Shown here in pieces: positions 14,545 to 37,875 of a DNA stretch of 64,000 nucleotides. Source of the DNA: a virus (taxonomy: Duplodnaviria; Caudoviricetes); the IMG/VR virus record IMGVR_UViG_3300021978_000001, positions 288,001-352,000 of that record; one strand, given 5' to 3'. How positions within the stretch are numbered: position 1 is the stretch's first letter; the number at the start of each line of letters is the position of its first letter. The position numbers and the translations under genes are program-made. Below the pieces are notes generated by a model. That model saw only the letters and a program-made list of their open reading frames with translations. It was not told the origin of the DNA and ran no database searches.

Positions 14545-14553
14545 GGCATCCTG

Positions 14554-14904: not shown

Positions 14905-14906
14905 TC

Positions 14907-14935: not shown

Positions 14936-14958
14936 TACCCAGACAAGGAGGCGAAGCG

Positions 14959-15737: not shown

Positions 15738-15754
15738 AAAAATCGCACTTTGCT

Positions 15755-15783
15755 TTTACGCCCCCTGCACCTTATGGTAACAA
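15755..15783 (+). promoter_or_regulatory. Early-type promoter with AGGTGTACG leader
   Basis: TTTACG-17(TTATGG)-TAACAA then TAGGTGTACGAACAAGACGACAACAC. Confidence 0.8.
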
Positions 15784-15828
15784 TAGGTGTACGAACAAGA
15801 CGACAACACAAAAGGCAAGGTGAGAGAC

Positions 15829-18048: not shown

Positions 18049-18725
18049 ACGGCGTGGCCACTTTCCATGACTTCGGCCTCTGGCGCCGTGCTTGTGATCC
18101 AGGCGTGATACAAAGCTGACGCTCGCGCGCGCTGACGTGAACCTCCTTGCGGGGATTCTCCTGCACCCACAGCTTCCATATCTTCTTGTGAATACATGCC
18201 TGTTTTGCGCACGTGGTACTGATTGTGGTGTCTCGGGGCACTGTAGGCAGGCTTGCTCGCGGCGTCATCGAAACACGTTGCGATGCTGTACAAGTCACGG
18301 TGAGTTACGGGGATCTCCCAATGGCTCGTTTGATGTTCGTGATCCATACGCTTGACGTACACCAGGAAGGCTTGCCCTATCTCCCAGCCGATCGTGATCA
18401 CTCGTTCGGGATCACGGGTGTTTACCAACTCGATAGAGTCCCTGAGCGTACCCAGTTCTTCGAGACCCGGTATCGTGCGTCCGAACGCACCATTGAGGGG
18501 TTCCTTGGGCTGGAAGAATGCGTGTACGAAAAGCCAACGTAACTCAGGCAAGGCGCTGGGCTCGATCTCGAACCGTTCCTCGACCCGGGCCTTTCCCAGG
18601 TGGTTATATTGCAGATGAAAGCAAGGCCCCTGGCCGTTATCACATATACGCCACGACATGCCGCCATTATTGACGTGGAGGTAACATCCCCCTTCCTGGC
18701 TTCCCGCGTTCACTTTCGATTCCAT
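18036..18725 (-). CDS. Hypothetical protein
   Basis: RBS AAGGAG before MESKVN. Confidence 0.7.
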   Translation of the reverse strand: MESKVNAGSQEGGCYLHVNNGGMSWRICDNGQGPCFHLQYNHLGKARVEERFEIEPSALPELRWLFVHAFFQPKEPLNGAFGRTIPGLEELGTLRDSIELVNTRDPERVITIGWEIGQAFLVYVKRMDHEHQTSHWEIPVTHRDLYSIATCFDDAASKPAYSAPRHHNQYHVRKTGMYSQEDMEAVGAGESPQGGSRQRARASALYHAWITSTAPEAEVMESGHAVYTR

Positions 18726-18752
18726 GTCTGCTCCTTTTTTTCTGTCATTACT

Positions 18753-18781
18753 TTTACGGTCCCGCTCTCTTATGGTATAAG
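18753..18781 (+). promoter_or_regulatory. Early-type promoter
   Basis: TTTACG-17(TTATGG)-TATAAG. Confidence 0.8.
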
Positions 18782-18814
18782 ACCCTTGAGTCATTGTAGC
18801 ATGGAGGTTTTGGT

Positions 18815-20197: not shown

Positions 20198-20210
20198 CGC
20201 AGGAGACATC

Positions 20211-20573
20211 ATGGTCGAGCAACTGGAATTGGAGCTGGAGATCTGCGAGGAAGAGCTAGACCTCGACTTCAACGCGCTCACTGCTTCTCTGAACGCGTCA
20301 GGTGTTCAAGTGGTAGGACAAGCTCCCTGTCGTTACGCGACCGTGCTTGTCGAGGTCCACTTTGAGTTTCACACTCCGGCGCCCGGTCAAGTCCGGTGCG
20401 TCGTGCTCGATTTGCAACGCGAGGGTGCCTCTTTATTGGCGCTCGGAAGTTGGAATGCGTGGGGCTTTTCAGACGTGGTGGCGTTGCCCTGGCTCAACGC
20501 ATGGGGCCAGCTTTTCGACTTGCAACGTGAGGAGATTCGCGCGCGTGTCCAGGATCACTACCTGTCTTGCTAA
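20211..20573 (+). CDS. Hypothetical protein
   Basis: RBS AGGAG. Confidence 0.75.
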   Translation: MVEQLELELEICEEELDLDFNALTASLNASGVQVVGQAPCRYATVLVEVHFEFHTPAPGQVRCVVLDLQREGASLLALGSWNAWGFSDVVALPWLNAWGQLFDLQREEIRARVQDHYLSC

Positions 20574-20579
20574 GTAGGT

Positions 20580-21173
20580 TCAGATCTCGAAGCGACCACC
20601 GAGCGCCTCTGCTTTCAACGCGAGTCGATCCATGAGACGAAGGTTGTTTGCCAGGTAAGAGGTGCTCATGCGTCCGTTGCTGTGCGAGATACGGCACCGG
20701 ACGTGTTCGTGCTGAGAAGCCCACTTCAAGAAATCATCGAAGCGTGGAGGTTCCTGGAAGGTCTTGATGTGGGGGTGTCTCGATTGTCTTCCGTAGATCT
20801 CCAACGCTGTGATATGCAGGTAGGGTCGGTCGAGCGTGATCGCACACTTCGCGCGCCATTCTCTCCCATGCATTTCGCCCGAGATCGAACTGCGCATAGC
20901 CAGACGCTCTACAAGCTCCTCTGCGGTCTCTGTAGGCGCCGTCGTGCATTGCCACACCCCTTTCCCTCGCGTCCACATTTCGCGGCTCTCGAAGTCTTCC
21001 AGGGCGCCCTCGCTCCCATCCTCGAATGGAAACGTGAACCCGTCGAGAATGGTCGTGTCAGAGGGCCAGGGATAGCCTTGCTTCCCCACCACATAGGCTG
21101 ATCGGCTGCGGTGATCACGCGGTGTGTGTCGAGCCAGGTAACGTTGTGCGACTGTGCGAGCTATCTTGTTCAC
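20580..21173 (-). CDS. Hypothetical protein with KIARTVAQRYL N-terminus
   Basis: RBS AGGAGG, GTG start; upstream GTTTATAG. Confidence 0.8.
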   Translation of the reverse strand: MNKIARTVAQRYLARHTPRDHRSRSAYVVGKQGYPWPSDTTILDGFTFPFEDGSEGALEDFESREMWTRGKGVWQCTTAPTETAEELVERLAMRSSISGEMHGREWRAKCAITLDRPYLHITALEIYGRQSRHPHIKTFQEPPRFDDFLKWASQHEHVRCRISHSNGRMSTSYLANNLRLMDRLALKAEALGGRFEI

Positions 21174-21196
21174 GGGTACCTCCTGACTTACAGGGC

Positions 21197-21205
21197 TCTA
21201 TAAAC
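21197..21205 (-). promoter_or_regulatory. Candidate late-promoter motif GYTTRTAS (also 3092-3100, 8989-8997, 25290-25298, 36882-36890)
   Basis: GTTTATAGA about 25 nt upstream of start; recurs upstream of isolated minus-strand genes. Confidence 0.45.
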
Positions 21206-21214
21206 GAATTAGTC

Positions 21215-21243
21215 TTGACGCCTTGCCTATAGTGTAGTACCAA
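21215..21243 (+). promoter_or_regulatory. Early-type promoter
   Basis: TTGACG-17-TACCAA. Confidence 0.6.
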
Positions 21244-21279
21244 GAGGAGAGCTGACCCTTAAACTGATGGAGGCTTATC

Positions 21280-21762
21280 ATGGGCATGGCAGCATATCGT
21301 AGATTATACACACCCCCGAACTGGGAACTCGAAGAGGGCACGCCTGAACAGCGTGAGTTGCGAGACAAGGCCAGGGCCTTGGGGTTGGATCTCAAAGGGC
21401 TCAAACCCCTCAAGGGTGCGCTTTGGGCCTATTCCAATAACACCTTGTCGCTTGGCTCGAACAAGTACCCCTTCTATGTGTCCAAGCATCAAGAGAAGCG
21501 CCCCGAGCCCTTTCGCGCGTTGGGGTACACCATGTGGGAGACGGAAGAACGCTACACGTTTTACGATGATGGGGAGACGCTCAGGAGCTTGAGCGAGTCC
21601 TTCCCTGGCCATCTTTTCATCCTGGAGACGCTCGACGAAGAGGGTGGACGCTACGTGGTGTATGCGCGTGACGGTCAAAGCGAAGTCGTGGCTGTGGAGA
21701 TGGCTTTCCCCTCGTCCACGCTTTGTGATACGATTGACCGGGCCTGGAAGCCCAGTCTTTAG
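21280..21762 (+). CDS. Hypothetical protein, paralog of 21799..22284
   Basis: YTPPNWE...TPEQRELRDKARALGLDL. Confidence 0.8.
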   Translation: MGMAAYRRLYTPPNWELEEGTPEQRELRDKARALGLDLKGLKPLKGALWAYSNNTLSLGSNKYPFYVSKHQEKRPEPFRALGYTMWETEERYTFYDDGETLRSLSESFPGHLFILETLDEEGGRYVVYARDGQSEVVAVEMAFPSSTLCDTIDRAWKPSL

Positions 21763-21798
21763 GTGTTATCAACGTCTTGTTTCGTATAAGGAGCGCTC

Positions 21799-22284
21799 AT
21801 GGGATACTACAGTCACTTTACGTTCTACATGCCCCCGGGTTGGGAGCCCGTCATGCTCACGCCTGAACAGCGTCAGTTGGCGCAAGAAGCGAAACGTCTC
21901 GGGCTCGACCTCGCGCATGACGAGGCGATCGGCGGGGAGCTTTGGAGTTTTGACCCGGCGGAAGAAGTTTTCCGCTTCGGAGGGTACGAGTTCTGGGAAC
22001 ATCGTCGGGGCTTTGATGAGAAGCTCAAGGCGCAAGGTTGGAGGTGTTGGTCTGCTGATGAACGGTTCAAGTTCTATCAGCACAAGAAAGCCTTCCTGGA
22101 GATGTCCAGGCACTACCGGGACCAGCTCATCATCGAAGAGGCGCTCACCGAAGAAAGCGGACGCTTCGTCAATTACTACTACAACGGGACGTGTGAGAGC
22201 TTCGTCGTCAAGATGACCTATCCTGTGCCTGAAAAGCTGGGCGTCGAGGGGGTTAACCTGGTGCCCTGGGAACCGTACAGGTGA
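21799..22284 (+). CDS. Hypothetical protein, paralog of 21280..21762
   Basis: YMPPGWE...TPEQRQLAQEAKRLGLDL. Confidence 0.8.
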   Translation: MGYYSHFTFYMPPGWEPVMLTPEQRQLAQEAKRLGLDLAHDEAIGGELWSFDPAEEVFRFGGYEFWEHRRGFDEKLKAQGWRCWSADERFKFYQHKKAFLEMSRHYRDQLIIEEALTEESGRFVNYYYNGTCESFVVKMTYPVPEKLGVEGVNLVPWEPYR

Positions 22285-22324
22285 CAAGAGTCACGGGTAC
22301 GAGACTCAAGATAACGAGAAGACC

Positions 22325-22495
22325 ATGATCTTGTACATATGTATCGGAGGCATCTGCTGTGTAGGCATCGCGCTCGCGACGCTCATTGCGTATGACCTGG
22401 GCAACAAGAAAGGTTATGCGGCAGGATATAGCCGTGGACTCGACCATGCGCAGGTCATCGCGAGCGCCATGACGCGAGCGCGGGATAACAAGTGA
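22325..22495 (+). CDS. Small membrane protein
   Basis: Manually found, 56 aa: MILYICIGGICCVGIALATLIAYDLGNKKGYAAGY... Confidence 0.6.
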   Translation: MILYICIGGICCVGIALATLIAYDLGNKKGYAAGYSRGLDHAQVIASAMTRARDNK

Positions 22496-22512
22496 CTCCG
22501 GGGATTTCGGAA

Positions 22513-22701
22513 ATGCTCATACACATCTTCGTACTTGTGGTGCTATGTGTTTGGGCTATGACGCTGTGGCGCGCCTACCGCTGGGGCTACAGGAAAGGGC
22601 GGATCGAACAACAAGACCGTGAGCTAAGACGGCGCAAGAGAGAACTCGAACGCTTGATTGACATGGTGCAACGTTTTCTTGTGACAGGAGAAGAGGAATG
22701 A
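22513..22701 (+). CDS. Small membrane protein
   Basis: N-terminal TM then basic coiled tail. Confidence 0.65.
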   Translation: MLIHIFVLVVLCVWAMTLWRAYRWGYRKGRIEQQDRELRRRKRELERLIDMVQRFLVTGEEE

Positions 22702-23027
22702 CAGATATACTCGTGCGTGTCCCGAAAAGAGAGGTCGAGCACTTCTGGGAACCGATTGGACCTGACCGTGTGGCATGGTGGACGCTTTCGCGCGCCCCCA
22801 AGGATTGCGGTGTGGGAGATACGATTTGGTTTCAGATCGAGGATGAGGTGGTCGCCAGCGCCAAGGTGACGTTCGTGGATACGGAAGAGCGGGAGTGTGA
22901 CTCCACAGGTCGCGCGTGGAACGGTGTGCACCTGGGCTGGGAGGGTGGCACCTTGAAAAAGCTCGATAAGCCGCGCACAGGTGAGAAGCTCACGCGCGGC
23001 TTCATGTACTACAACACGGACAAGTGA
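22698..23027 (+). CDS. ASCH/PUA-like protein
   Basis: WWTLSRAPKDCGVGDTIWF...VVASAKV pattern. Confidence 0.55.
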   Translation: MTDILVRVPKREVEHFWEPIGPDRVAWWTLSRAPKDCGVGDTIWFQIEDEVVASAKVTFVDTEERECDSTGRAWNGVHLGWEGGTLKKLDKPRTGEKLTRGFMYYNTDK

Positions 23028-23212
23028 TGCACAGTTTCATTGCCCTGGATTGGATCGCCATAGGCTTTCTTGTTGCCGCCACGCTACAGATCTCGAACAG
23101 CGTGAGACTCATCGCAAAAGCGCTCGGCATCTCGGAGACCTTACATAGGCTCACGTATGATCGTGAGCGCGAGCACTTGAGTCTCACAGACGGCACAGAC
23201 GGTACACCGTAA
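23024..23212 (+). CDS. Small membrane protein
   Basis: One TM helix; GTGA overlap. Confidence 0.6.
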   Translation: MMHSFIALDWIAIGFLVAATLQISNSVRLIAKALGISETLHRLTYDREREHLSLTDGTDGTP

Positions 23213-23223
23213 GGAGAAGCTCG

Positions 23224-23430
23224 ATGGAACTAATACTGCTTATCATCACCCTCACGGGTGCTATCACCGTCATCATGTTTGTCGTGCTCGTGGTCGCGCT
23301 GATTCGCGCGATGCTCACGGCTAACATCGAGTTTGCCCCTCCCTCAGAAGGGGAGGTTGCGCGCGCTCGCGCGTTGGAAGAGAAGCGCCGCAAGTTTCAA
23401 GAGGGGTCTGGTATCTCGGATGGCTCGTGA
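23224..23430 (+). CDS. Small membrane protein
   Basis: Long N-terminal TM; RBS AAGGAG. Confidence 0.7.
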   Translation: MELILLIITLTGAITVIMFVVLVVALIRAMLTANIEFAPPSEGEVARARALEEKRRKFQEGSGISDGS

Positions 23431-23750
23431 GAGTATCCGGGATGCACGACGCTGACATCCAGGTAGCCACCACCGCCATGGTAGTGGATGCCCCAGGCTC
23501 TTCGACCGTGTGGTTTTAGCTCGGGACCGTCGAGCCACACAGACTCATCCTGCAACGCATCCTTGAATGCCTCTACAAGCTCCGTAGGGCTCGATGCCTC
23601 TTCGGTCCAGGCCATGGCGAGGAAATCAGCGTCCTTCCCGAGAGAGCCGTGCAGCGCGAGCGCATAACCGTGTTGACGCGCCACGTAGATCAAGCGCGCG
23701 TACATCCACACGTAGGTGGGAGAGTTGGCCTTGGGTTTCTTCTCGGTCAC
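23397..23750 (-). CDS. Conserved-type phage protein (HGSL-x2-D-x-D; nucleotidyltransferase-like?)
   Basis: GYALALHGSLGKDADFLAMAW, KPHGRRAW. Confidence 0.7.
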   Translation of the reverse strand: MTEKKPKANSPTYVWMYARLIYVARQHGYALALHGSLGKDADFLAMAWTEEASSPTELVEAFKDALQDESVWLDGPELKPHGRRAWGIHYHGGGGYLDVSVVHPGYSHEPSEIPDPS

Positions 23751-23777
23751 GCTGAACTCCTATACTGCACGCTCGGG

Positions 23778-24344
23778 TCAATCGTTCAAGTGACGTGTCA
23801 GCCTGAGCAGGTGTGCGATGGGTTTTGTGATCAGATCTGCACGACGCGCCATGCGGTTGATCCGGTTGCTCTCCTGGGGAGAGAGTTTGTATTGTACCTT
23901 GATTGGCACTTCCAGGTCACGCTCCATTGTTCCTACGTGAGATGCCACGCTGACATCCATTGTGATGGTCCCCTCATAGGTGAGCAGATCACGCCCGATC
24001 TGGCGCGTGTTCAGCTTGAGCCTCACGGGTGTCCTCGGGTAGTAGAACTCACCCTCCATCATCTCTTCGAGCGCGTCCAGGGTATCTCCAGGGAAGCTGC
24101 GGTCCACACGCGTGTAGGATTCGAGCGCCTGTTGCATGATCCTTTTCGCGGCGGGGATGTCCACCTTGACGCTCAGGTTGCCTTTTGCTTCCCAGACCTC
24201 GGGCGCGCCATTGGTAAGGATGCGCGTGATCGTCGGTGGGATTCTCGGGGAGGTCTTGAGGTTGAGATCACGTTCGAGCACGACCCCAAAGAGCCTGACA
24301 GGGGCCTCTGCTTCAGTGACGTCTATGGTAAGGATATACTGCAT
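23778..24344 (-). CDS. Hypothetical protein
   Basis: RBS GAGG; co-oriented with 24350..25255. Confidence 0.75.
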   Translation of the reverse strand: MQYILTIDVTEAEAPVRLFGVVLERDLNLKTSPRIPPTITRILTNGAPEVWEAKGNLSVKVDIPAAKRIMQQALESYTRVDRSFPGDTLDALEEMMEGEFYYPRTPVRLKLNTRQIGRDLLTYEGTITMDVSVASHVGTMERDLEVPIKVQYKLSPQESNRINRMARRADLITKPIAHLLRLTRHLND

Positions 24345-24349
24345 GAGGC

Positions 24350-25255
24350 TTACCTCGCTTGCTTGAGGAGCCAGGACCACCAGGCTTTCGCGCCGCGTGA
24401 TCCAGGTCCCACAGTGATGTAACTGTAGTCCTCATCGTTTTCTGCTTCGAGGAGATGGGGCTCTCGTGTGAGGATGTTTTTGAGATAGGGCAACAGCTCG
24501 TTCACGCGCATCTCTTCGAGGCTCTGGTAGAGCTTCTTGAGAACGCGTTGCTTCTGCTTGCGGTCAAGGTTCTTGCCCATGCTCTTGAACAGCTTGGTGT
24601 CGGATTGAGACAGGTATGCGTTCAAGGGCGCGCGTCCCTCGAAGATGCCGTCCAGGTTGAAGCTGTCGATGGCCAGGACTTCCGGGGCATAAAACAGGAT
24701 GTCATTCAACGAACCTCGCCCCACCCGCGCGAACTTGAGCTGTTCTTCGATGGCCAGGATCAGGGCACGGTGAGCCGAGCTTACTGCCTGGCTGATCATG
24801 GCACTGATTTCGTAGTCCGTGCTGATGTACTCTTGCCTGGACCCAGGGCCTCCTCGGAAATGCAAGGCCCCTTCCTTTTCATCGAGGAAGTGGGTGATCT
24901 CGTGTACCAGTCTTGACGCGATGCTCGGATCACGTGGCGTGTCCGGGTCTTCGAGCTGCTCGGGCTTGATCTTGATGTGGATCTTGTTCTGGCCGATCTC
25001 GTAATACCCTTGACTCGGGCGGTCGAGCTTGGTCCTGAATTGAATGATCAGGTACGTGTGGTCAGGGAACTCGGGTAAGACCTTCTCGACACGTAGAGTG
25101 ATCTGCACCAGTTTCTCCCCACGAAAGCGTCGGGTTGCCCAAGGTTGCTTGAGCAAGTACGCGTAGAGTAGCCGCGCTTTCCGTTGCCTTTCGCGTGCAG
25201 GTGCGCCTGCTCGACGTTCTAGGCAGTAAAAGGCAGCGACACGTTTATATAGCAT
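24350..25255 (-). CDS. HExxH metallopeptidase-like protein with KRVAAFY N-terminus
   Basis: LVHEITHFLD...YISTDYEISA; upstream GTTTATAC. Confidence 0.75.
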   Translation of the reverse strand: MLYKRVAAFYCLERRAGAPARERQRKARLLYAYLLKQPWATRRFRGEKLVQITLRVEKVLPEFPDHTYLIIQFRTKLDRPSQGYYEIGQNKIHIKIKPEQLEDPDTPRDPSIASRLVHEITHFLDEKEGALHFRGGPGSRQEYISTDYEISAMISQAVSSAHRALILAIEEQLKFARVGRGSLNDILFYAPEVLAIDSFNLDGIFEGRAPLNAYLSQSDTKLFKSMGKNLDRKQKQRVLKKLYQSLEEMRVNELLPYLKNILTREPHLLEAENDEDYSYITVGPGSRGAKAWWSWLLKQAR

Positions 25256-25301
25256 GATGGCCTCACAGGTTAGCTTCCAGAGATCATGCTGTATAAACCG
25301 A

Positions 25302-25661
25302 TCATTCCTCCACAGGGAGCACCGGGTTGATCTGCTCACCGCCCGAACCTTCACCACTCACGTTTTTGCATTCCTTGCACCAGGATTGCCAGTATGCCTT
25401 GCCGCGCTTTTTCATCACGCGCACACCAAAGTGTAGCATCAAGGCATCGGTGCCTTGCGCTTCGAGCATGCAGTTCGGGCACGCGTGCGTCATGGTTTCC
25501 CACAGGTCCAGTGCCATGACCTCTTCGAGCGCTTGCTCTTGTGGAATCTTGAAGCGGTTTGCGAGCGCGTTCGCGAACGTGTCTGCCTTGTCTTTGGTGA
25601 CGTTGACGTGACTGTGGAGCCACTTGGTGGCCCATACGATGCGGTCTTGCTTCGTGCTCAT
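25302..25661 (-). CDS. Zn-ribbon protein
   Basis: CPNC...FGVR...QSWCKEC; RBS AGGAGG; own promoter 25708-25737 (TTTACA-18-TAAAAG). Confidence 0.8.
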   Translation of the reverse strand: MSTKQDRIVWATKWLHSHVNVTKDKADTFANALANRFKIPQEQALEEVMALDLWETMTHACPNCMLEAQGTDALMLHFGVRVMKKRGKAYWQSWCKECKNVSGEGSGGEQINPVLPVEE

Positions 25662-25915
25662 GTTATCCTCCTACTTCCATAACCAGGGGGTCGTCAATAC
25701 TCCACTCCTTTTACCACAAGGGTAGGCTAGGTGTAAAGTAAAACTGTAAAAATAAGCAGTACAGTGGGGGTTGGTTTCGTGGCGAGGCTTTGTATCTCTA
25801 CTTTGATATACTCTGACATTTATGTCACTGTTTTGCATACAAGCCTTGAGCACGGCACAGATACCGAGGTGTAGAAAGCGAAACAGGTCTTAAAGTCTTT
25901 TAGAAGGCTTTTCTT

Positions 25916-25944
25916 TTTACACATAACCTGTCTTATGGTAACAG
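25916..25944 (+). promoter_or_regulatory. Early-type promoter
   Basis: TTTACA-17(TTATGG)-TAACAG with A/C-rich leader. Confidence 0.75.
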
Positions 25945-26009
25945 TAATCGTAACTAGCCAGCACGACACGACACGATACACCACAGTACGGAAGACAAGG
26001 AAGGACATC

Positions 26010-26396
26010 ATGACGGAAGCAATCTATGTTGGTACGACCCCCGCAGGCGTCATCTGGAATTGGTACGGTAGAGGGGAGTTGGAGACGATGCGCGAACGCT
26101 TCGAGGTGGTGTGTCGCCAACAGCGCGCCGCCAAGCTCGTAGGCCGCGTGATCATGCACCGATGCTTCAACAAGCATCGCCGTGGTGTGGTTGTGGCGCG
26201 CTCGAAGGACGGGCACGAGGTGCTCGTGAAGATGAACATCTCGATGTACAACGGAAAGTACCGTGAGACACGGTACTTTGTTGCTGCCACCGACGATCCC
26301 AGGTGGTTGCAGTACCAGGGTGTGGTTTTCAACGTGGAAATGCTTCGTTCCTACAAGGAAGGCGAGCTTCCCCTGAAGTGGCAAGACCGCTTGTGA
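26010..26396 (+). CDS. Hypothetical protein
   Basis: RBS AAGGAAGGA. Confidence 0.8.
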   Translation: MTEAIYVGTTPAGVIWNWYGRGELETMRERFEVVCRQQRAAKLVGRVIMHRCFNKHRRGVVVARSKDGHEVLVKMNISMYNGKYRETRYFVAATDDPRWLQYQGVVFNVEMLRSYKEGELPLKWQDRL

Positions 26397-26436
26397 GCCT
26401 CTACGTGTCCTCTCGAAGAAAAGACCTCACTTTCCT

Positions 26437-26465
26437 TTTACGGTAGTGGGGTCTTCTGGTATCAG
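26437..26465 (+). promoter_or_regulatory. Early-type promoter with AAGTGTACG leader
   Basis: TTTACG-17-TATCAG then TAAGTGTACGGTACGA. Confidence 0.8.
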
Positions 26466-26509
26466 TAAGTGTACGGTACGAGATACGACAACGAGACGAG
26501 AGGGATACC

Positions 26510-26989
26510 ATGCAAGACTATGATTACGACATGCCCGAGATTATCCGCAGCTCCAAGCATACCGCACGCAAGGACCACACAGACAAGTGTGAGTGCTGCA
26601 AGGGCCGCATCCTCAAGGGCCAGACGTACACCCTCGAAGTCGGGCTTGACATCCACGGGGATTTCTTCACCTCGAAAACCCACGTCGGGCGTTGCCACCT
26701 GCGCTACTGGGGCATCACTGAGGGCGAGGTGCTCGGTGAGGTTCGCAGCGCAGAAGCCAAGCCCTACATCACCGAGTACACCCGCAGCGACCTTCGCGAG
26801 AAGGCGGAAGCGGTCGAAGACCCCGAGCGTCGTGCCAGCCTCAAGGCACGCATCGCCAAAATCAAAACGGTCTGGGAATGTCCACACACAGGGTGTATGA
26901 TGTACGATGACCGCACGCCGGTGGACCCTGAGAGGTTCAAGAAGGCTGTGGAACGTATGCGCGCTCAGGACGCCGCGATGGGCTGGTGA
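26510..26989 (+). CDS. Hypothetical Cys/His Zn-binding protein
   Basis: ARKDHTDKCECCKGRI...HVGRC. Confidence 0.8.
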   Translation: MQDYDYDMPEIIRSSKHTARKDHTDKCECCKGRILKGQTYTLEVGLDIHGDFFTSKTHVGRCHLRYWGITEGEVLGEVRSAEAKPYITEYTRSDLREKAEAVEDPERRASLKARIAKIKTVWECPHTGCMMYDDRTPVDPERFKKAVERMRAQDAAMGW

Positions 26990-27047
26990 ACCTGTCCACA
27001 CATAGGCGAGATGCTTCGAGCGCGCTTTTCATAAGGGAGGTGCGCTC

Positions 27048-27476
27048 GTGATCGTTGGAACCAAATCATGCAACTGGACTTTAAACCATAACCGGCTCGA
27101 ACTCGGGAGAGACGCAGACAATGTGCGCCGCTCACTCGATTTCCCGGCGAGTTTGATCACGACAGTGCCCGTGGTCGAAACGTCGATCCGTCTCACGGAC
27201 AAGGGCGTGGTGTGGTCTCAGGGGCACATGGTCCTGACCATGCGTTGGGGCGGTGCGCTCTCGAACAAGCTCTTGATGTGCTTGCAGGATGAGGGCGAGG
27301 TGTTCAAGGTGCGCAACGGTAAGATTCATGGGAGGTGGTCGTTTACGATCATCCGTGGCCGTCAACTTCAAATCATCCCCGTGAAGGCTTCGGTTACCTA
27401 TACCGAGTGCGAGCCTTACCGAGACAGCCTCATTCAGTGGTACAAGGATAACTATAACGCGGAGGAGACAGAATGA
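27048..27476 (+). CDS. Hypothetical protein, paralog of 27473..27916
   Basis: MIVGTKSCNW ... CEPYRDSL. Confidence 0.8.
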   Translation: MIVGTKSCNWTLNHNRLELGRDADNVRRSLDFPASLITTVPVVETSIRLTDKGVVWSQGHMVLTMRWGGALSNKLLMCLQDEGEVFKVRNGKIHGRWSFTIIRGRQLQIIPVKASVTYTECEPYRDSLIQWYKDNYNAEETE

Positions 27477-27916
27477 TTGTAGGAACAAAGGCATGTAGCT
27501 GGAAGCTCGATAGGTGGTCCCACCTTGGCAAGCGATGGCGCAAGGATGGGTTCGATGCGGTTAATTTCATGGATTCGAGGCTCACGGCGATCCCTATCAT
27601 CCAGGGGTCGGTGACGTTCCTGGACGCGCGCCCCTGGATGAAATTCAATGATGGACATGATGACTGGACGATCCCTGTGCAAGATTCTTTCTGCAATGAC
27701 GTCCTGGCCGCGCTGTGTTCGAGCAAGGGCGATTACACCTTACGCTCAGGCGCCGTACACGGGCTGTGGGGGCTTCGCAAGAACGGAACCGTAATCGTGC
27801 TCACCCTCCCGCATCTTATCCCTGGTAGCGTGGACTGGGAGCCTTGCGCGCCCTACCGAGAAACGCTCTGCACGTTCCTCGAAAACCACGGCGCTGATAC
27901 GCGGATCACAAAATAG
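27473..27916 (+). CDS. Hypothetical protein, paralog of 27048..27476
   Basis: MIVGTKACSW ... CAPYRETL. Confidence 0.8.
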   Translation: MIVGTKACSWKLDRWSHLGKRWRKDGFDAVNFMDSRLTAIPIIQGSVTFLDARPWMKFNDGHDDWTIPVQDSFCNDVLAALCSSKGDYTLRSGAVHGLWGLRKNGTVIVLTLPHLIPGSVDWEPCAPYRETLCTFLENHGADTRITK

Positions 27917-27929
27917 TTGTGAGAAAGTT

Positions 27930-27958
27930 TTTACGCCCCCTAATCCTTGAGGTATCGG
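27930..27958 (+). promoter_or_regulatory. Early-type promoter with AAGTGTACG leader
   Basis: TTTACG-17-TATCGG then TAAGTGTACGGAACGACAACAC. Confidence 0.8.
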
Positions 27959-27999
27959 TAAGTGTACGGAACGACAACACAGACTGATACGACACGAGA

Positions 28000-28407
28000 G
28001 TGACGACCGCAGATACCTACCCACGCCGCTACTCCGCAAAGTACGAAGAAACCAAGGGCTTGAGCAACAAAGAGCTTGCAAAGCTCGTCCGCAAGGACAT
28101 CAAGGCTGCGATCAAGGCAGGCGATCTCCCCAAGATCAAGACCAGCGTGCGCAGCAGGTCGGGCGCGATTGATTGTGAGATTAAGGAAGTCCCCTTCGAT
28201 GTCTTCAGGTACCCTACCGAAGACGAGGTGAAGTGGGAGAACCGCAACCCCAAGTGGCGCAACGTCATGACGGACGAAGCCAAGCGCGTCAGGAACTTCG
28301 TCGAAGCCTTGCGTAACGCTTACAACTTCAACGGCTCGGATGCGCAGAGAGATTACTTTGACCTGCGTTACTACGGGGGCACGCAGTACAGCACGGGCCT
28401 CAAGTGA
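28000..28407 (+). CDS. LPD29-like (large polyvalent protein-associated) protein
   Basis: KLVRKDIK...KTSVRS...AYNFNGSDAQRDYFDLRYY pattern. Confidence 0.65.
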   Translation: MTTADTYPRRYSAKYEETKGLSNKELAKLVRKDIKAAIKAGDLPKIKTSVRSRSGAIDCEIKEVPFDVFRYPTEDEVKWENRNPKWRNVMTDEAKRVRNFVEALRNAYNFNGSDAQRDYFDLRYYGGTQYSTGLK

Positions 28408-28474
28408 CCCTTGCCTGGGTCTCCTGAACCCTGTATCCTCGTGAGGGAACCTGAACCCCTCGCGAGGATTTTTT

Positions 28475-28726
28475 ATGGGCAAGAAGAACCGACGCAAGAA
28501 ACACAACAAGTATGCCGAGCACTCCAAGACAAGCCACTGGACGCGCAACCCGCGCGGGTCTCGTGCTTCGGATTGTACCAAGAAGGGGCGCTATCCCACG
28601 CACAGGATCGCTCAGGAGCGTATCCAACGCTACCGTGACAAGAAGGGGGTCGAGCTGACCACCTACCATTGTCATGTGTGCCAGGGTTGGCACCTGACCA
28701 GTGCCAAGAATCAGCCCCAGGAGTAG
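28475..28726 (+). CDS. Small basic Zn-binding phage protein
   Basis: CTKKGRYPT...YHCHVCQGWHLT. Confidence 0.8.
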   Translation: MGKKNRRKKHNKYAEHSKTSHWTRNPRGSRASDCTKKGRYPTHRIAQERIQRYRDKKGVELTTYHCHVCQGWHLTSAKNQPQE

Positions 28727-28789
28727 CGGCTCAGGTGTGATTTAGCCTGGAGTTGTGAGAAAAGTCTGTTTTCTCGATGCCTTCTTAAC

Positions 28790-28828
28790 CGCATGATCAC
28801 TGCACTTGCAGGAGGTCATGCGTTTTTT
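28790..28828 (+). terminator. Intrinsic terminator
   Basis: CGCATGATC/GGTCATGCG stem plus T-run. Confidence 0.7.
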
Positions 28829-28851
28829 CGTGCTTTTTTTGTGTGATTGTT

Positions 28852-28880
28852 TTTACGGTCTAGGTACCTTGTGGTATCAG
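28852..28880 (+). promoter_or_regulatory. Early-type promoter with AAGTGTACG leader
   Basis: TTTACG-17-TATCAG then TAAGTGTACGGAACGAAAGACGACAACAC. Confidence 0.8.
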
Positions 28881-28940
28881 TAAGTGTACGGAACGAAAGA
28901 CGACAACACACCACGGCACGAAAGATAAGGAAGTGATACC

Positions 28941-29351
28941 ATGACGAAAGCAATCAACGCCGCAGAAGCCAAGCACATCGCAACCCAAGACACTCGCAAA
29001 GATTTCATCGCTTGCTGGACCCACGCGAACCCCACGGACTGCCGAGAGAAGATCTCGACCCTGTATGACATGCTCGTCAAGAACTGGCCCGAGATCACAC
29101 GCGGCGGGCACCGTGGCCAGGTGGGTCGCATGAAGCCCTGGGAGACGATCGTCCACACCTGCCCATGCTGCGGAATGCAGGCACAAGGCTTGGCAGACAT
29201 CAAAGAGCACTTCGGTCTTCGCTACTACAGCGCTCGCGGCAAAACTTACCTCCAGAGCTACTGCCGAACCTGTCGCCGTGAAGGCACCGAGCAAACCGGC
29301 GCCAAGTATGTCCGAATCAACCCCGAGGTCCGCGCTGGCTTCACGAACTGA
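28941..29351 (+). CDS. Zn-ribbon protein, related to 25302..25661
   Basis: CPCC...HFGLR...QSYCRTC. Confidence 0.8.
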   Translation: MTKAINAAEAKHIATQDTRKDFIACWTHANPTDCREKISTLYDMLVKNWPEITRGGHRGQVGRMKPWETIVHTCPCCGMQAQGLADIKEHFGLRYYSARGKTYLQSYCRTCRREGTEQTGAKYVRINPEVRAGFTN

Positions 29352-29370
29352 GCCTAGCGTCCCTTCCTCA

Positions 29371-29403
29371 AGCCTCGCCTCTCTCAGAAGGGCGAGGTTT
29401 TTT
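29371..29403 (+). terminator. Intrinsic terminator
   Basis: CCTCGCC/GGCGAGG stem plus TTTTTT. Confidence 0.75.
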
Positions 29404-29405
29404 CA

Positions 29406-29434
29406 TTTACGGTATATGTGCTTTGTGGTAACAA
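29406..29434 (+). promoter_or_regulatory. Early-type promoter
   Basis: TTTACG-17-TAACAA. Confidence 0.75.
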
Positions 29435-29484
29435 GAGCTGTACGCTGACGACACACACAGACGACACACACAGAAGAGGATACG

Positions 29485-29832
29485 ATGAAACGATTGACCT
29501 ACACGCTCAAGACCAACCAATACCATGACGACATCATCCTCGATGGTTATCAAGCGTCGGAACACTTCGGGGTCCACAAGAACAACCGAGGGTGGACCCT
29601 CACGCACCTCGCGTCGGGGCAGCGCGTGGCGTTCGGTAAGACGCGCAAGAGCTGCCAGGAGCTTGCGCAAGCGCTCGAACCCTACGTGGTCGAGGCTCAT
29701 GCAAAGGTCGAGGCACAGGGGAGCCTGGAGGCGCTGTTCGATGATAGCGAGCTGCTCAAGACTTTCCAGGACGCGTTCATGACCGAAGAGACGCGCGCGA
29801 TTATCGCCGCGCACAAGAAAGCCAACGGATAA
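29485..29832 (+). CDS. Hypothetical protein
   Basis: RBS GAGGA; WTLTHLASG motif. Confidence 0.8.
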   Translation: MKRLTYTLKTNQYHDDIILDGYQASEHFGVHKNNRGWTLTHLASGQRVAFGKTRKSCQELAQALEPYVVEAHAKVEAQGSLEALFDDSELLKTFQDAFMTEETRAIIAAHKKANG

Positions 29833-29885
29833 TGCGCAACGCACGCGCAACACGAACACGCGCAACACAAAAGAGGAGTAGACGC

Positions 29886-30203
29886 ATGTACGACAATGAA
29901 ACGCTCGCAGAGGAAGCCAACAACGTGGCGGAGTATGCCGAACTTGGCACGGGCTGGTGGCTCGAAGTCAAGGATACCGAGAACCCCGCTCACGCGCGCG
30001 TAGAGCGCTACCACTACAACCCTGAAACCATGGAGCGCCTCGCTCTTGTCGAGGACTTCCTCGTGGACCGTGCGTACTTTCACGGCAACATGAAACGACT
30101 CCCGGATGGTTGCACGGTCGAGCAGATGGTGCGAGCATGCGCGTTGAGCCATCCCGATGTGATGGGTATCAGTGATGCGCTTCCACGTCGAGCACAGCCA
30201 TGA
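29886..30203 (+). CDS. Hypothetical protein
   Basis: RBS GAGGAG. Confidence 0.75.
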   Translation: MYDNETLAEEANNVAEYAELGTGWWLEVKDTENPAHARVERYHYNPETMERLALVEDFLVDRAYFHGNMKRLPDGCTVEQMVRACALSHPDVMGISDALPRRAQP

Positions 30204-30742
30204 ATCCTCTTCACCCTGTATTGTTTCTGGACGTGGATGGTGTGCTTAACACGCGCACGTACCTGTACGAACAGAAGCTCAAGCTCGATATGCCTGACGC
30301 TCTTCCCGCGCCTCCCTTTTCGCATCGTATCGACTTCGAGATGGACCCTGCGCGTGTGGCTGTGCTCAACCGCATCTTCGACGCTGTGCCGAATCTCCAG
30401 CTCGTGTACTCGACGTTCTGGCGAGGTATCGACAAGGTAGGTGAGGCGGGTATCACGCGCGCGCTGGATAGCCATGGCTTCCGCTACACCGAGCGTTGCA
30501 TCGGTATCACGCCCACGCGCAAGACCGAAGACGGGCGCCCGCAAGAGATCGCGAACTGGTTCGTGGATAACCCGACCTTTTCCGGCTGGGCTATCGTGGT
30601 CGATGATTGCCAGGGGATCGCGGCCTTTGCGGTTCGTTCGGATCGTCCGTTCTTCCCCGTCGTGACCAGCATGGATGCAGGCGGACTTACCGATGCTCAT
30701 GTGGATCGTCTCCTCGAAGACATCAAGGCTTTGTTACCATGA
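30200..30742 (+). CDS. HAD-superfamily protein, Swiss-army-knife RNA-repair type (HAD_SAK-like)
   Basis: VLFLDVDGVLN, VYSTFWR, RPQEIANW, IVVDD. Confidence 0.85.
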   Translation: MNPLHPVLFLDVDGVLNTRTYLYEQKLKLDMPDALPAPPFSHRIDFEMDPARVAVLNRIFDAVPNLQLVYSTFWRGIDKVGEAGITRALDSHGFRYTERCIGITPTRKTEDGRPQEIANWFVDNPTFSGWAIVVDDCQGIAAFAVRSDRPFFPVVTSMDAGGLTDAHVDRLLEDIKALLP

Positions 30743-31584
30743 CCGAGTTTCTCCCCCGTTCGCTGTATCATGACCCGCGCTTGTGGTGGTTCATTCTCCC
30801 GGAGGGGAGCCGTTACGAAACCACCCAGGCGCTCGCGGAAACGATTCACCCTGCGCACGTGATCCCGGTATGTCGGGTGCTGGGTCAGAAGGTTCATGTG
30901 CGTCCAGGGTCCTCGCAGTTTATGGACGTGGTGCATCGCGGCGCCCCGGATAGACTCGCAGACCTCGCTACATGGTTCGAGGCGTCACAAAAGACGCGTT
31001 CTTATGAGGTCGAGTATGTCGAGTACAACTTCGAGCTGAACACGATCCTGGTCAGGGAGAGCCAGGAGCAGCTTGACATAAGAAAAATTCGCCTCCTGGG
31101 AGATCCTGACGAGCAGGAGCGGTTCACGTTTAAACATCACAACGGTGACTTTTGGTACGCTGTGAATGGTGATAGCAGTCGCTCCAGGGTGTATTACGTG
31201 TGTTACGAGTCCTACCTCGGTCCCGTGAAGCTGGGCTCTATCAAAGAAGGCCGCACCGATGCCTGGGATGCCGTAGAGGGTGACCCCCTTTATGCAGGGA
31301 TATTCGGGCGCCCACACGACTTCTTGCGTTGTGAGTGTTGCAAGGGCAAGCTCACCTATTACGAGCGCCAGTTCTCGGTGAATCATTGGGTACGGACTTT
31401 CGAGGATCGGGACGCCCCTGGACGCCCCTGGAAACAAAACATGGAGGTCTGGCGCCTACACTGGGCAACGTGCTTGAAGTGTCACCCCTGGCGCGGGAGC
31501 TTGACGTTATGTGGAAACGATGGTATGGAAGGGGCTATCACGCTCGCAGGGTCGGGCAACTTGACACTTATGGAGGACACATGA
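30739..31584 (+). CDS. Hypothetical protein with C-terminal CxxC pairs
   Basis: ATGA overlap; CECC ... CLKC. Confidence 0.75.
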   Translation: MTEFLPRSLYHDPRLWWFILPEGSRYETTQALAETIHPAHVIPVCRVLGQKVHVRPGSSQFMDVVHRGAPDRLADLATWFEASQKTRSYEVEYVEYNFELNTILVRESQEQLDIRKIRLLGDPDEQERFTFKHHNGDFWYAVNGDSSRSRVYYVCYESYLGPVKLGSIKEGRTDAWDAVEGDPLYAGIFGRPHDFLRCECCKGKLTYYERQFSVNHWVRTFEDRDAPGRPWKQNMEVWRLHWATCLKCHPWRGSLTLCGNDGMEGAITLAGSGNLTLMEDT

Positions 31585-34774: not shown

Positions 34775-35077
34775 ATGGTTTCCAACAAAGATCCGCGAGG
34801 CTTGTTCAAAAAGTACGCCAACGAGATCATCGAGCTTTCCAAAGAGAAGGATTTTCCGGTGCCTATCGACCTTCGCCTGTCGAAGCAAGACATCCTCGCT
34901 CGAATCGAGGGGATGGCACCCTGGGATTGCGTGGATTTTGTGATCGCTCATGTGAATGAGATTCACGCATGCGCTCCAGTGACCGAGGAAGATCGTTACT
35001 GCGAGCCCGAGCCAGACGACATCGACGCGGAAGCCTACTACGCGATGCATCGCGGCGGCGATTACTGGAACTTCTGA
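34775..35077 (+). CDS. Hypothetical protein
   Basis: RBS GAGGGA; alternative start 34736. Confidence 0.75.
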   Translation: MVSNKDPRGLFKKYANEIIELSKEKDFPVPIDLRLSKQDILARIEGMAPWDCVDFVIAHVNEIHACAPVTEEDRYCEPEPDDIDAEAYYAMHRGGDYWNF

Positions 35078-35101
35078 CCTGACCCCCAAGAGGAGACTGA
35101 C

Positions 35102-35566
35102 ATGTTGCAACATCAATACGAGCAAGAGAAGCGCGCCATCGAGAACGGATACTGCTGCAACAAGGGTTGCACGGGTCGTTGGATTCTCTCGGACTTCGAT
35201 ACCTGGCACTCCTGCAATCACGGAAACCCTGGCCCCCACCCTCATGAGCTGGAAGCGCGCTTCGAGGCAGAAGAGTACGATAAGAACGTCGCACCCTGGC
35301 GCGAGCGCTTCAAGAAGGCAGGTACCCAGCTCATGAGGCTCGGGTTCACCTCGAAGCAGGTGGGAGAGTTCGCTCGCTCCCTGGATTCAGAGCAGCAGAC
35401 GAGGTTGCTCGAAAACTACCGCCAGACCTACCCCGAGATCTTTGCCGAACCGCTGCCCGTGTACATGACCTGGACGCCCATCATCCAGACTCTCTACATC
35501 GAAGAGATGGCGCGTGATGAAACGCTTCGCCTCTCCTGGACCCTGGATGATTTCTGGGCTCACTGA
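35102..35566 (+). CDS. Hypothetical protein
   Basis: RBS GAGGAG; CxxxxCxGxWxxSxxDxWHxC motif. Confidence 0.8.
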   Translation: MLQHQYEQEKRAIENGYCCNKGCTGRWILSDFDTWHSCNHGNPGPHPHELEARFEAEEYDKNVAPWRERFKKAGTQLMRLGFTSKQVGEFARSLDSEQQTRLLENYRQTYPEIFAEPLPVYMTWTPIIQTLYIEEMARDETLRLSWTLDDFWAH

Positions 35567-35588
35567 GGCGCACACGAAGTCAGCCTTT

Positions 35589-35618
35589 GAAACCCCTCGC
35601 CCAAAAGCGAGGGGTTTC
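35589..35618. terminator. Bidirectional terminator hairpin
   Basis: GAAACCCCTCGC/GCGAGGGGTTTC between convergent genes. Confidence 0.75.
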
Positions 35619-35630
35619 TCGCGTCTGGGG

Positions 35631-35981
35631 TCACACGAACCCGAGGTGCGCGAAGACAGAGACCTTCTCGGTCTCCCCCGTCTCAGGGTTCACGCGCTCC
35701 TGCGACTGGCGCAGGCTGAACGCGTAGACGGGTGTCACGCCTATGGAGAGCAACGCCTCGTGCAAGGGATGCATCAGGAAGGGGGCACCACCGAGCATGG
35801 CGCTCTCGTGGCCCACAGCGAGCTGTGCGAGCGCTTCGGCGCGCTCACGAACCTCATCAGAGGTAGGAAGCTCGGTGAAGGACAGCAACGCCTGGACTGC
35901 TGACTTGTCGGAAGGCTCCACGACACCGGCGTCACGCTGCGCGGCGCTGGTGGGGTGTTGGGTGAGATTCAAGGTCGTCAT
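35631..35981 (-). CDS. Csx20-like protein (candidate cOA ring nuclease / type III anti-CRISPR)
   Basis: LNLTQH...Q..AG; AMLGGAPFL; GVTPVYAFSLR; EKVSVFAHLGF. Order and spacing match my recollection of Csx20 (LFSHxLTxxQ; LIQGDFG; GxxPVYATTxR; KxSxFKHVRF). RBS AGGAG. Confidence 0.6.
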   Translation of the reverse strand: MTTLNLTQHPTSAAQRDAGVVEPSDKSAVQALLSFTELPTSDEVRERAEALAQLAVGHESAMLGGAPFLMHPLHEALLSIGVTPVYAFSLRQSQERVNPETGETEKVSVFAHLGFV

Positions 35982-36073
35982 ATTCTACTCCTGTACACAT
36001 CGACGCTGGCCAATCCAACGTCGTTCATATGGCAGGAGAGATGTGCGTTGCGCGGCGCTGACACTTCACACAA

Positions 36074-36108
36074 AAAAGCCCTCGATGTTTCACACACCGA
36101 GGGCTTTT
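36074..36108 (-). terminator. Intrinsic terminator
   Basis: AAAAGCCCTCG/CGAGGGCTTTT. Confidence 0.75.
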
Positions 36109-36130
36109 AGGGGGGGAGGGGTAGAGAGGC

Positions 36131-36832
36131 TTAGAAGCCTGCGTGCGCCTCGATGAGAGGCAAGAGGGCGCTGCGGAACTCGGGGCGTGCGAACGCGAGA
36201 CGGATCAATGCCTCACCGAGCTTGAGGTTGCGCTTCTTGGCGTAGTTCTTCGCGATGTCGGAGATCGAAGGCTTCTTGCTCGGGTTGGCGGGAGGATGCT
36301 TGACGTACATCTTGAGCGCCTTGTCGAACTCCTTGCTCATCAGGGCGTTGACCTCATCCTTGTCGATCAGCTCGTCGCGTGTCTTGTCCTTCTTGACCTC
36401 GCGCCAGAACGTCATCTTGTCCTTGTCCGAGGGCTTCTTGTATTTCTTCTGGAGCTGTTGCAGTTCCTTCCCGGAATCATCCTTGTCCGAAGAGCTGTCA
36501 CCACCATCACCCTTCCACTTGTCGAAGAGCTTCTGGAAGAATCCCTTGCCCTCATCCGTGCTCGGGAGCGACTTGATCTTGACCTCATCCGAGCGACCCT
36601 TCGGGTTGGGGTTCTTGACCTTCTGATCACCCACTTCTTCGAGGAACTTCTTGACATCCTTGCCACCCTTGTCCGCGCGCTTGAGCCAGGTGTAAGGCTC
36701 GACGTAAGCGCGGCGGTGTTGAAGCTGCGCGTGCGCTTGACGGATGTCGTCTTCGATCAGGGGCATCAAGTGGGGTCGCAGCTCGCGATGGGTAAAGGCG
36801 AGCTTGATGGTTTCATCACGGAGCGTGCTCAT
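36131..36832 (-). CDS. Lys-rich protein bracketed by two LIRLAF-x3-PE-x-R-x2-LLPLI repeats
   Basis: N-terminal TIKLAFTHRELRPHLMPLI, C-terminal LIRLAFARPEFRSALLPLI. Confidence 0.85.
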   Translation of the reverse strand: MSTLRDETIKLAFTHRELRPHLMPLIEDDIRQAHAQLQHRRAYVEPYTWLKRADKGGKDVKKFLEEVGDQKVKNPNPKGRSDEVKIKSLPSTDEGKGFFQKLFDKWKGDGGDSSSDKDDSGKELQQLQKKYKKPSDKDKMTFWREVKKDKTRDELIDKDEVNALMSKEFDKALKMYVKHPPANPSKKPSISDIAKNYAKKRNLKLGEALIRLAFARPEFRSALLPLIEAHAGF

Positions 36833-36912
36833 GGTTTCTCTTCCTTGGGTGAGTAGGTGGACACACATACACCATCTGTGAGCTACAAACACATTATGCA
36901 ACGCGAGACCTC

Positions 36913-36941
36913 TTTACGAGAACGCTTCAATGTGGTAAAAC
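36913..36941 (+). promoter_or_regulatory. Early-type promoter
   Basis: TTTACG-17(ATGTGG)-TAAAAC. Confidence 0.7.
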
Positions 36942-36979
36942 CCGCTTGAGTACCATTACAGAAACTCGAAGAGGTTAAC

Positions 36980-37417
36980 ATGACATACATCAACGCCGAA
37001 GAACTGCTCGACACGCTCAAGGGTACAACACAAATGAGCAAGAGCGCCTGGGACTCCCTCGAAACCACGATCCCTACCGTCAAGGTGGACATCGTGGGAG
37101 GACGCTTCGATGTCACCGCGCGCGAATGCCATATCTCCACGTCTCACCCGGAGTCGAAGCAACGCGAGAAGTTTGGTTTGAGTTGCCAGGGGTATCTGAT
37201 CCAGGTGTCCTCGGGGAACGTGATCATCTTCGTGCCGAAAGAGCACATCACCAGCGTGGACTCTGGTGAAGGCCATGCCGCGAGCGTGCTGCAAAGGCAC
37301 TACCGCAACACATGCGCGACCAACATCTACAACCAGTGGGACCGCAGCCGGAAAGCCTGGGAGAAACACAAAAGCATGCTTGCAGAACTCAAGCGCGACG
37401 ACCAGAAATCCTCCTGA
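36980..37417 (+). CDS. Hypothetical protein
   Basis: RBS GAGG. Confidence 0.8.
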   Translation: MTYINAEELLDTLKGTTQMSKSAWDSLETTIPTVKVDIVGGRFDVTARECHISTSHPESKQREKFGLSCQGYLIQVSSGNVIIFVPKEHITSVDSGEGHAASVLQRHYRNTCATNIYNQWDRSRKAWEKHKSMLAELKRDDQKSS

Positions 37418-37533: not shown

Positions 37534-37875
37534 ATGAAGTTCAACTTGAAAAGAGCGTGTAGCGAGTGTCCGTTTCGCAAAGAGAACGGTTACCTCGAAC
37601 GTGGGCGCGCGCGTGAGATCGCGCATGCGTTGCAAAACGATGGCAGCTTTACCTGTCACAAGACCCTCGACTACACGAGCGGCAAGCCAGGAGAGACCCA
37701 GAAGAGCGCGTTCTGCGCGGGCGCCCTGAGCGTCATGGAGAACGAAGGTTCGACGTTCGCGAACGTGCTCATCCGCCTCGCCGCGATGGGCATGGGGTAC
37801 GACCCTGACGCCTTGCTCGATCGAGAGGAGTGCTTCGAGAGCATGGAAGCCTTCATCCTCGGGCATGGGAGTTGA
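37534..37875 (+). CDS. Cys/His Zn-binding protein (DUF6283-like)
   Basis: CSECPFR ... FTCHKT ... CAGAL. Confidence 0.75.
   Translation: MKFNLKRACSECPFRKENGYLERGRAREIAHALQNDGSFTCHKTLDYTSGKPGETQKSAFCAGALSVMENEGSTFANVLIRLAAMGMGYDPDALLDREECFESMEAFILGHGS

Follow-up and report, generated by a model that had tools for sequence, protein, structure and literature searches.

A 116-aa protein encoded by a phage with a 437-kb genome is a relative of Csx20, and our analysis favors, at a probability of about 0.55, the reading that it is a cA4 ring nuclease which would blunt type III CRISPR signalling, that is, an anti-CRISPR. This reading is preferred because of the homology, the location in a phage, the stand-alone gene in a genome free of type III genes, and the conservation of residues likely to form the ligand site. 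From these, together with the confidently predicted fold and dimer, we infer the ligand, the catalysis, and the anti-CRISPR role.

An earlier note on this DNA had proposed a Csx20-fold ring-nuclease anti-CRISPR in the phage. Homology, phage location, and the stand-alone position of the gene speak for this proposal, but its claim to be new had to be given up: Csx20 has already been reported from phages (PMC12409355), and a counter-defence role has already been suggested (PMC13551039). Likewise, Csx20 had been described as an accessory protein merely proposed to act on cOA, although Csx20 as well as Csx16 have been shown to be cA4 ring nucleases (PMC12409355).

The gene and its genomic surroundings

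The window analyzed here is a stretch of 64,000 nucleotides corresponding to bases 288001-352000 of a phage record of 437,490 bp with direct terminal repeats. Features of the Csx20-like gene and its surroundings are listed in Table 1. The ORF, its AGGAG RBS, and both flanking hairpins had been described before, and they were recovered from the ORF listing, by reading of the sequence, and by folding, respectively; the four motifs named in the earlier note were located at residues 4-15, 62-69, 81-91, and 105-115 of the protein. A database search yielded 24 homologs with E-values down to 4e-67, and a profile search of 1.84 billion representatives yielded at least 2,565 clusters (50% identity) at E ≤ 1e-3. 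Therefore, judged by sequence, the ORF is a real gene and no chance ORF.

Table 1. Coordinates of the features discussed; positions refer to the window unless marked as genome positions.
Feature	Position	Strand	Remarks
Csx20-like coding sequence	35631..35981	-	116 aa, ATG start, TGA stop; from the ORF listing
RBS AGGAG	35988..35992	-	6 nt 5' of the ATG; seen in the minus-strand sequence
GC-rich hairpin, 13 bp	35589..35618		Likely two-way terminator, between convergent genes
Hairpin, 15 bp, followed by a U-run	36074..36108	-	Terminator of the minus-strand gene 36131-36901
CRISPR arrays	genome about 13289-31183, 110461-110706, 405622-408641		Outside the window
Cas6e	genome 17075-17713		TIGR01907, 95.5 bits; outside the window

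The 13-bp hairpin, which separates the Csx20-like gene from the convergent plus-strand gene 35102-35566, gave folding energies of -27.3 kcal/mol (minus strand, z -4.3) and -26.1 kcal/mol (plus strand, z -3.7), and a short U tail (UUUC) was present on both strands. For the 15-bp hairpin, a value of -24.7 kcal/mol (z -5.9) was obtained, with the U-run located on the minus strand. A simple terminator scanner called neither of the two hairpins, which do not conform to its rules for loop and T-run. As the Csx20-like gene is flanked by these two strong hairpins, it constitutes a monocistronic transcription unit of its own; the 15-bp terminator ends the gene upstream, and a separate promoter is therefore needed within 35993-36073. 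Scanning of positions 35000-37000 for sigma-70-like promoters returned none. The heptamer TGTGGTA occurs 26 times in the window as compared to 4.3 expected occurrences, mostly on the plus strand and just 5' of genes (e.g., at 34709, 36931, and 37441), and probably serves as a promoter element of the phage; none of its copies lies upstream of the Csx20-like gene.

Ten neighboring ORFs were essentially without family matches, and none of them matched a cas gene. The only neighbor assigned to a family is 37534-37875 on the plus strand, which matched phrog_5443 (E 3.5e-19) and, weakly, DUF6283, both of unknown function. Next to the Csx20-like gene, neither an RHH or HTH regulator of the aca type nor a known acr gene was found. 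When the 12 kb surrounding the gene were compared with cultured phages by megablast, no match was obtained. Among sequencing runs containing this DNA, a hydrothermal-vent metagenome ranked best and may represent the source sample; none of the runs listed was of RNA.

The phage genome contains 33 tRNA genes. As called by ARAGORN, one of them (genome position 120038-120110, minus strand) has the anticodon CTA and would decode the stop codon TAG; since the Csx20-like gene ends with TGA, its reading frame is unaffected. Searches of the whole 437-kb genome with the Cas10 models Csm1 and Cmr2 and with the AcrIII-1 model PF08960 were negative.

The phage carries at least 10 dispersed CRISPR arrays with a type I-E-like repeat, a period of 61 nt, and 4-7 repeats each. 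The presence of Cas6e and of these many arrays raises the question whether the Csx20-like protein belongs, as an accessory protein, to the CRISPR-Cas system encoded by the phage itself, the more so as PADLOC associates Csx20 with both type I and type III loci and two canonical Csx20 genes sit in type I-B loci together with Cas1, Cas2, Cas3, and Cas8b. However, such a role is very improbable because the gene is located about 300 kb from Cas6e and the arrays and because type I-E systems neither make nor use cOA; furthermore, the genome is devoid of Cas10, and most relatives of the gene reside in phages that show no sign of cas genes.

Homology to Csx20, predicted fold, and conserved residues

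The single protein matched the NCBIfam Csx20 model NF040559 with an E-value of 8.7e-4 and 19.7 bits, through its C-terminal residues 75-115 only, and the match to the PADLOC Csx20 model was weak (E 0.0019) and likewise confined to the C-terminus. NF040559 is an equivalog model with a curated cut-off of 70 bits, which the Csx20-like protein fails and which canonical genes exceed with 138-166 bits. The protein is therefore a divergent relative and no Csx20 equivalog. A Pfam scan with a copy of Pfam that lacks PF27247 assigned no family to the protein; PHROGs gave a match at chance level only (E 0.28), and searches of the PDB by sequence, both with the single protein and with the family profile, returned nothing meaningful.

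All 24 homologs carry a precomputed assignment to PF27247, which is on record for a protein 99% identical to the Csx20-like protein (P0001) and for 23/23 others. This family is named MJ1673 in the ESM Atlas, and the NCBIfam Csx20 model indeed scored above its cut-off in M. jannaschii, which fits the name. Each of the 24 family members matched the NCBIfam model as well (best E 1.2e-9). No Csx20 was detected with this model in 301 genomes of the phylum to which a cyanobacterial MAG belongs.

A canonical set of 20 bona fide Csx20 genes (138-166 bits) was collected from 401 genomes of one Bacillota-type phylum. In a reciprocal search, the family HMM found 16 of the 20 canonical loci, and alignment of the 24-homolog profile with these 16 sequences by hhalign extended over 120 columns, that is, the full length, with a probability of 96.5% and an E-value of 7.9e-10. 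The protein is thus a genuine, though distant, full-length relative of Csx20 as judged by profile comparison, and the Csx20 motifs that the earlier note had cited agree with the real Csx20 sequences retrieved.

The canonical consensus reads F-S-H-x-L-T-x-x-Q, Q-G-D-F-G-A-T, P-I-Y-A-T-T-x-R...E, and F-K-H-x-R-F; the corresponding motifs in the family of the phage protein are N-L-T-Q-H-P-x-T-x-x-Q, G-G-A-P, P-V-Y-A-F-S-x-R...E, and F-x-H-x-G-F. Positions aligned by hhalign comprise H9, S/T12, Q15, G-A, P-x-Y-A, S/T89, R91, E95, F110, and H112. Neither the Asp of canonical Q-G-D-F-G nor the Arg of H-x-R-F is retained in the phage protein. Among 118 clade members, conservation was 99% for H9, 100% for Q15, 99% for S/T89, 99% for R91, 98% for E/D95, 97% for K106, and 93% for H112, values which are inflated at residues 5-10 and 64-67 by the retrieval patterns and unbiased elsewhere.

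AlphaFold2 prediction with the 24-sequence alignment gave a pLDDT of 94.7 and a pTM of 0.81; the predicted fold is a small alpha/beta domain with a long beta-hairpin at its end. A fold search of the ESM Atlas placed the model in PF27247/MJ1673 clusters (TM 0.81-0.83). Foldseek returned no PDB match at E ≤ 0.001; the best PDB fold matches were racemase-type and other generic Rossmann-like domains, and structural scores for minimal CARF ring nucleases did not exceed those of unrelated Rossmann-like domains.

A homodimer model that included AMP reached an ipSAE of 0.78 as compared to 0.00 for the best control; of the proteins solved as pairs, 20 of 30 attain the ipSAE mark applied, and of those solved as single chains, one of 23. 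Three dimer runs agreed in 100% of the contacts with a pLDDT of at least 89. Modelling therefore supports a homodimer. In the prediction, residues 63-75 and 84-90 make up the interface, with the two invariant G-G-A-P loops lying side by side on the axis. The model, the conserved residues, and the tandem forms described below suggest that a nucleotide pocket is located on the dimer axis and uses His/Arg/Ser/Glu chemistry, which would fit the metal-independent cleavage of cA4 demonstrated for canonical Csx20, an enzyme that also cleaves cA3 at high concentration of the protein (PMC12409355; Hoikkala et al. 2025). A Csx20 catalytic residue defined by mutagenesis was not found in the literature consulted, and we therefore refer to the active site as putatively conserved.

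The same residues bear on the question whether the protein may bind cA4 or cA3 as a sponge, with very slow turnover or none, as reported for Csx15. This related small protein of the CARF type sponges cA4 well and has very slow nuclease activity (PMC13148439), phage sponges are common for other nucleotide signals, and the canonical GDFG Asp is absent from the phage protein. We nevertheless consider a sponge quite unlikely, as the two His, the Arg, and the Glu common to active Csx20 are kept at 93-100%; moreover, the authors of the Csx15 study argue that the amounts of cOA made by type III systems are too large for sponging to be effective, and Csx15 was not found in phages (PMC13148439).

Relatives on mobile elements and canonical Csx20 loci

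The survey of homologs in phages and in cas loci, suggested previously as a check, was carried out and revealed a mostly viral clade. A scan seeded with sequence patterns retrieved 130 relatives from IMG/VR and 39 from 185,579 species genomes, counts that apply to each collection and are not normalized to its size; many of the 39 are located on short MAG contigs. ESM Atlas clusters of the family were 81-82% viral. In a quick maximum-likelihood tree of 16 canonical sequences, the phage protein, and 117 relatives, a very long, fully supported branch separates the canonical sequences from all others. Within this second clade, sequences from viral contigs and from genome contigs are intermixed over many phyla, including Saccharimonadota, Bacteroidota, Pseudomonadota, Verrucomicrobiota, Cyanobacteriota, Synergistota, and Acidobacteriota as well as an archaeon; one viral sequence is identical to a genome sequence.

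Clustering of the neighbors of 119 clade loci produced no cluster present in more than 10 loci, hence there is no fixed partner gene. The commonest neighbors encode an SNF2 helicase, the large terminase, ParB, and a Dam methylase. A Cas1 match was obtained in only 2/119 loci, and single-sequence searches of the clade loci for Cas2, Cas3, Cas6, Cas8b, and Csx1 gave no match. The two loci with a Cas1 homolog, both from Akkermansia MAGs (L106:8900-9256 and L120:3459-3815), are also the sole clade members with CRISPR-like arrays in their flanks; here, a cas locus could have recaptured the gene.

Tandem duplications account for about 19 of the best 149 representatives. Commonly, only one half of such a protein keeps both N-L-T-Q-H and G-G-A-P, which is expected if the unit works as a dimer and the tandem form presents its ligand site as a pseudo-dimer. 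Two- and three-domain tandem forms were seen in P0025-P0043 and others. Additionally, 32 single-domain forms possess N-terminal extensions of 65-245 aa, and the five that were scanned had no Pfam match. Across ten family members with a fusion or tandem architecture, no extra domain exceeded the threshold of a Pfam family.

When 50,697 cultured phages were searched by tblastn, two matches were obtained, namely Pasteurella phage Pm86 and Rhodothermus phage RM378 (gene Rm378p002, 39% identity). The csx20-like ORF of Pm86 (L002:309-509) is 44.8% identical over the C-terminal half and displays the clade motifs GGAP, PVYAFS-x-R-E, and F-K-H-x-G; it is followed by an RHH gene (L002:484-699, PF01402, E 1.5e-5) and by a Csy2-like gene. 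This ORF comprises the C-terminal half only, lies near the end of a linear record, and overlaps the RHH gene; neither is annotated in the deposited record. In a 2026 paper, operons of P. multocida under the RHH regulator Aca14 were reported to contain csx20 homologs, adjoining AcrIF6 and Cas5-IF homologs, and co-option of Csx20 by phages for counter-defence was suggested (PMC13551039). Since the layout in Pm86 resembles the published acr-aca14 locus, the P. multocida homolog probably belongs to the same clade as the phage gene. A published assay of a Csx20 from a phage or mobile element was not found in the literature.

Distant relatives also occur on plasmids. By tblastn (E ≤ 1), 82 plasmid records matched, 73 of which are conjugative. 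Relatives with 26-31% identity were found on pCAR1 (IncP replicon, MOBH; L148:6980-7339) and Rts1 (IncT; L149:6989-7369), in both cases directly 5' of a conserved gene set encoding a MoxR ATPase, DUF3150, and a VWA protein. The N-terminal His is absent from both, pCAR1 reading N-L-T-K-F and Rts1 N-L-T-T-Y; from their sequences, they look like a separate sub-family, which is possibly non-catalytic.

Canonical Csx20 genes were inspected as controls. Array detection proved a weak control at these loci (arrays in 1/7) and was replaced by cas-gene annotation. Apart from those in type I-B loci, sampled canonical genes were located beside Csx1 with CRISPR arrays or were fused to a TM1812/DxTHG CARF protein. 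In four to five related Bacillota genomes (L150, L151, L153, L154, and partly L156), an above-threshold Csx20 gene adjoins spoVAD, RecD2, and a GGDEF-EAL gene. As these genes are without cas neighbors, canonical Csx20 is not always linked to CRISPR, and together with the plasmid relatives that lack the N-terminal His they indicate that the fold is not tied to one role.

Such loci have to be weighed with regard to a function outside defence, for instance in nucleotide or RNA-end metabolism or in regulation, with nothing but an ancestral Rossmann-like fold in common with Csx20. The racemase-type and generic Rossmann-like matches in the PDB, the spoVAD/RecD2/GGDEF-EAL neighborhoods, and the conserved MoxR-DUF3150-VWA backbone module of the plasmids would be compatible with a function of this kind. 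However, the full-length profile homology covers the shared polar motif residues, placement in phages is scattered and variable as is typical of accessory counter-defence genes, the Pm86 member sits in the acr-aca14-like locus, and canonical members occur next to Csx1 or as fusions with CARF proteins; a non-defence function is therefore rather unlikely.

Concerning the signal that is recognized, the low Csx20 score and the very long branch imply that substrate or activity may have changed. Cas10 scored above the cut-off in two of five clade-bearing genomes examined for type III status, and the hosts of the clade span many phyla. Together with the great distance from canonical Csx20, the cleavage of cA3 by Csx20 itself, and the example of Crn4, which shows that broad specificity is possible in small ring nucleases, these findings leave some room for another nucleotide signal (cA3 or other CBASS products, cA6, or decoys of the Panoptes type) and hence for an activity that is not specifically directed against type III systems. 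This is unlikely, considering that all cellular ring nucleases of the Csx16/Csx20 group assayed so far prefer cA4 (PMC12409355). In a broader and still doubtful interpretation, the clade might represent a large, barely studied family of phage counter-defence proteins, the activity of which has perhaps diverged from that of Csx20 (another cyclic oligonucleotide, broad specificity, or a sponge) and which would act beside the phage's own type I-E CRISPR.

Proposed mode of action and comparison with known systems

As a cA4 ring nuclease, the Csx20-like protein would be expressed from its own promoter during infection. By analogy with Csx20 assayed in vitro, its dimer would bind cA4, and perhaps cA3, in a pocket on the two-fold axis, made up of the N-L-T-Q-H loop that follows strand 1 and of the G-G-A-P loop. 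Ring cleavage would be metal-independent and would rely on the conserved H9, S89, R91, E95, and H112. The second messenger produced by the type III CRISPR-Cas10 complex of the host would thus be removed and effectors activated by cA4, e.g., Csx1 and Can2, would be kept off. In effect, a strategy of the AcrIII-1 type would be carried out by a different fold. The location on a mobile element, a 437-kb virus, and the 130 relatives on viral contigs provide the context for counter-defence.

If active, the protein would place a giant marine phage among the viruses able to disarm type III signalling, in this case with a borrowed enzyme of the Csx20 type and not with AcrIII-1. The gene itself is a routine gain in annotation and introduces no new principle; useful additions are the size of the clade, its viral bias, and a set of conserved residues for mutation. 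Among 28,114 genomes of cultured phages, Csx20 was reported in four and AcrIII-1 in 36 (PMC12409355), and our tblastn search of cultured phages gave 2/50,697. The survey suggests that the divergent clade is far commoner in uncultured phages than such counts imply.

Among known systems, Crn1 (Sso2081) and other minimal CARF ring nucleases are not linked by sequence to the phage protein, which shows no sequence similarity to any solved chain. Crn4 offers a local resemblance, as T-x-H within N-L-T-Q-H is reminiscent of the T13/H15 described for that enzyme; a Crn4 chain from the PDB was absent from both the sequence and the fold lists, and this absence does not exclude Crn4. The proposed mode of action is shared with AcrIII-1/Crn2 (DUF1874, PF08960), a small phage homodimer that destroys cA4 and thereby counteracts type III effectors, but the latter belongs to another family: the phage protein has no Pfam match and the genome no PF08960.

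Canonical Csx20 and the phage protein both fall into the class of about 120 aa, show profile homology over their full length, and contain four motifs in the same order with a shared set of His, Thr/Ser, Gln, Gly-Ala, Pro-x-Tyr-Ala, Ser/Thr-x-Arg, Glu, and Phe-x-His; a dimer was modelled for the former (PMC12409355) and is predicted for the latter. In contrast to canonical Csx20, the phage protein has neither the GDFG Asp nor the HxRF Arg, scores 19.7 against 70 bits, and is set apart by a long branch; its genome is without Cas10, and its gene is without Csx1 or a CARF fusion. The csx20 homologs of the Pasteurella acr-aca14 loci differ in another respect, namely in their RHH/HTH neighbor and acr genes, both missing beside the gene of this 437-kb phage with its own type I-E system. 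Nevertheless, they probably have in common with it the clade motifs, which are seen in Pm86, and they share the proposed co-option of a cas gene for counter-defence.
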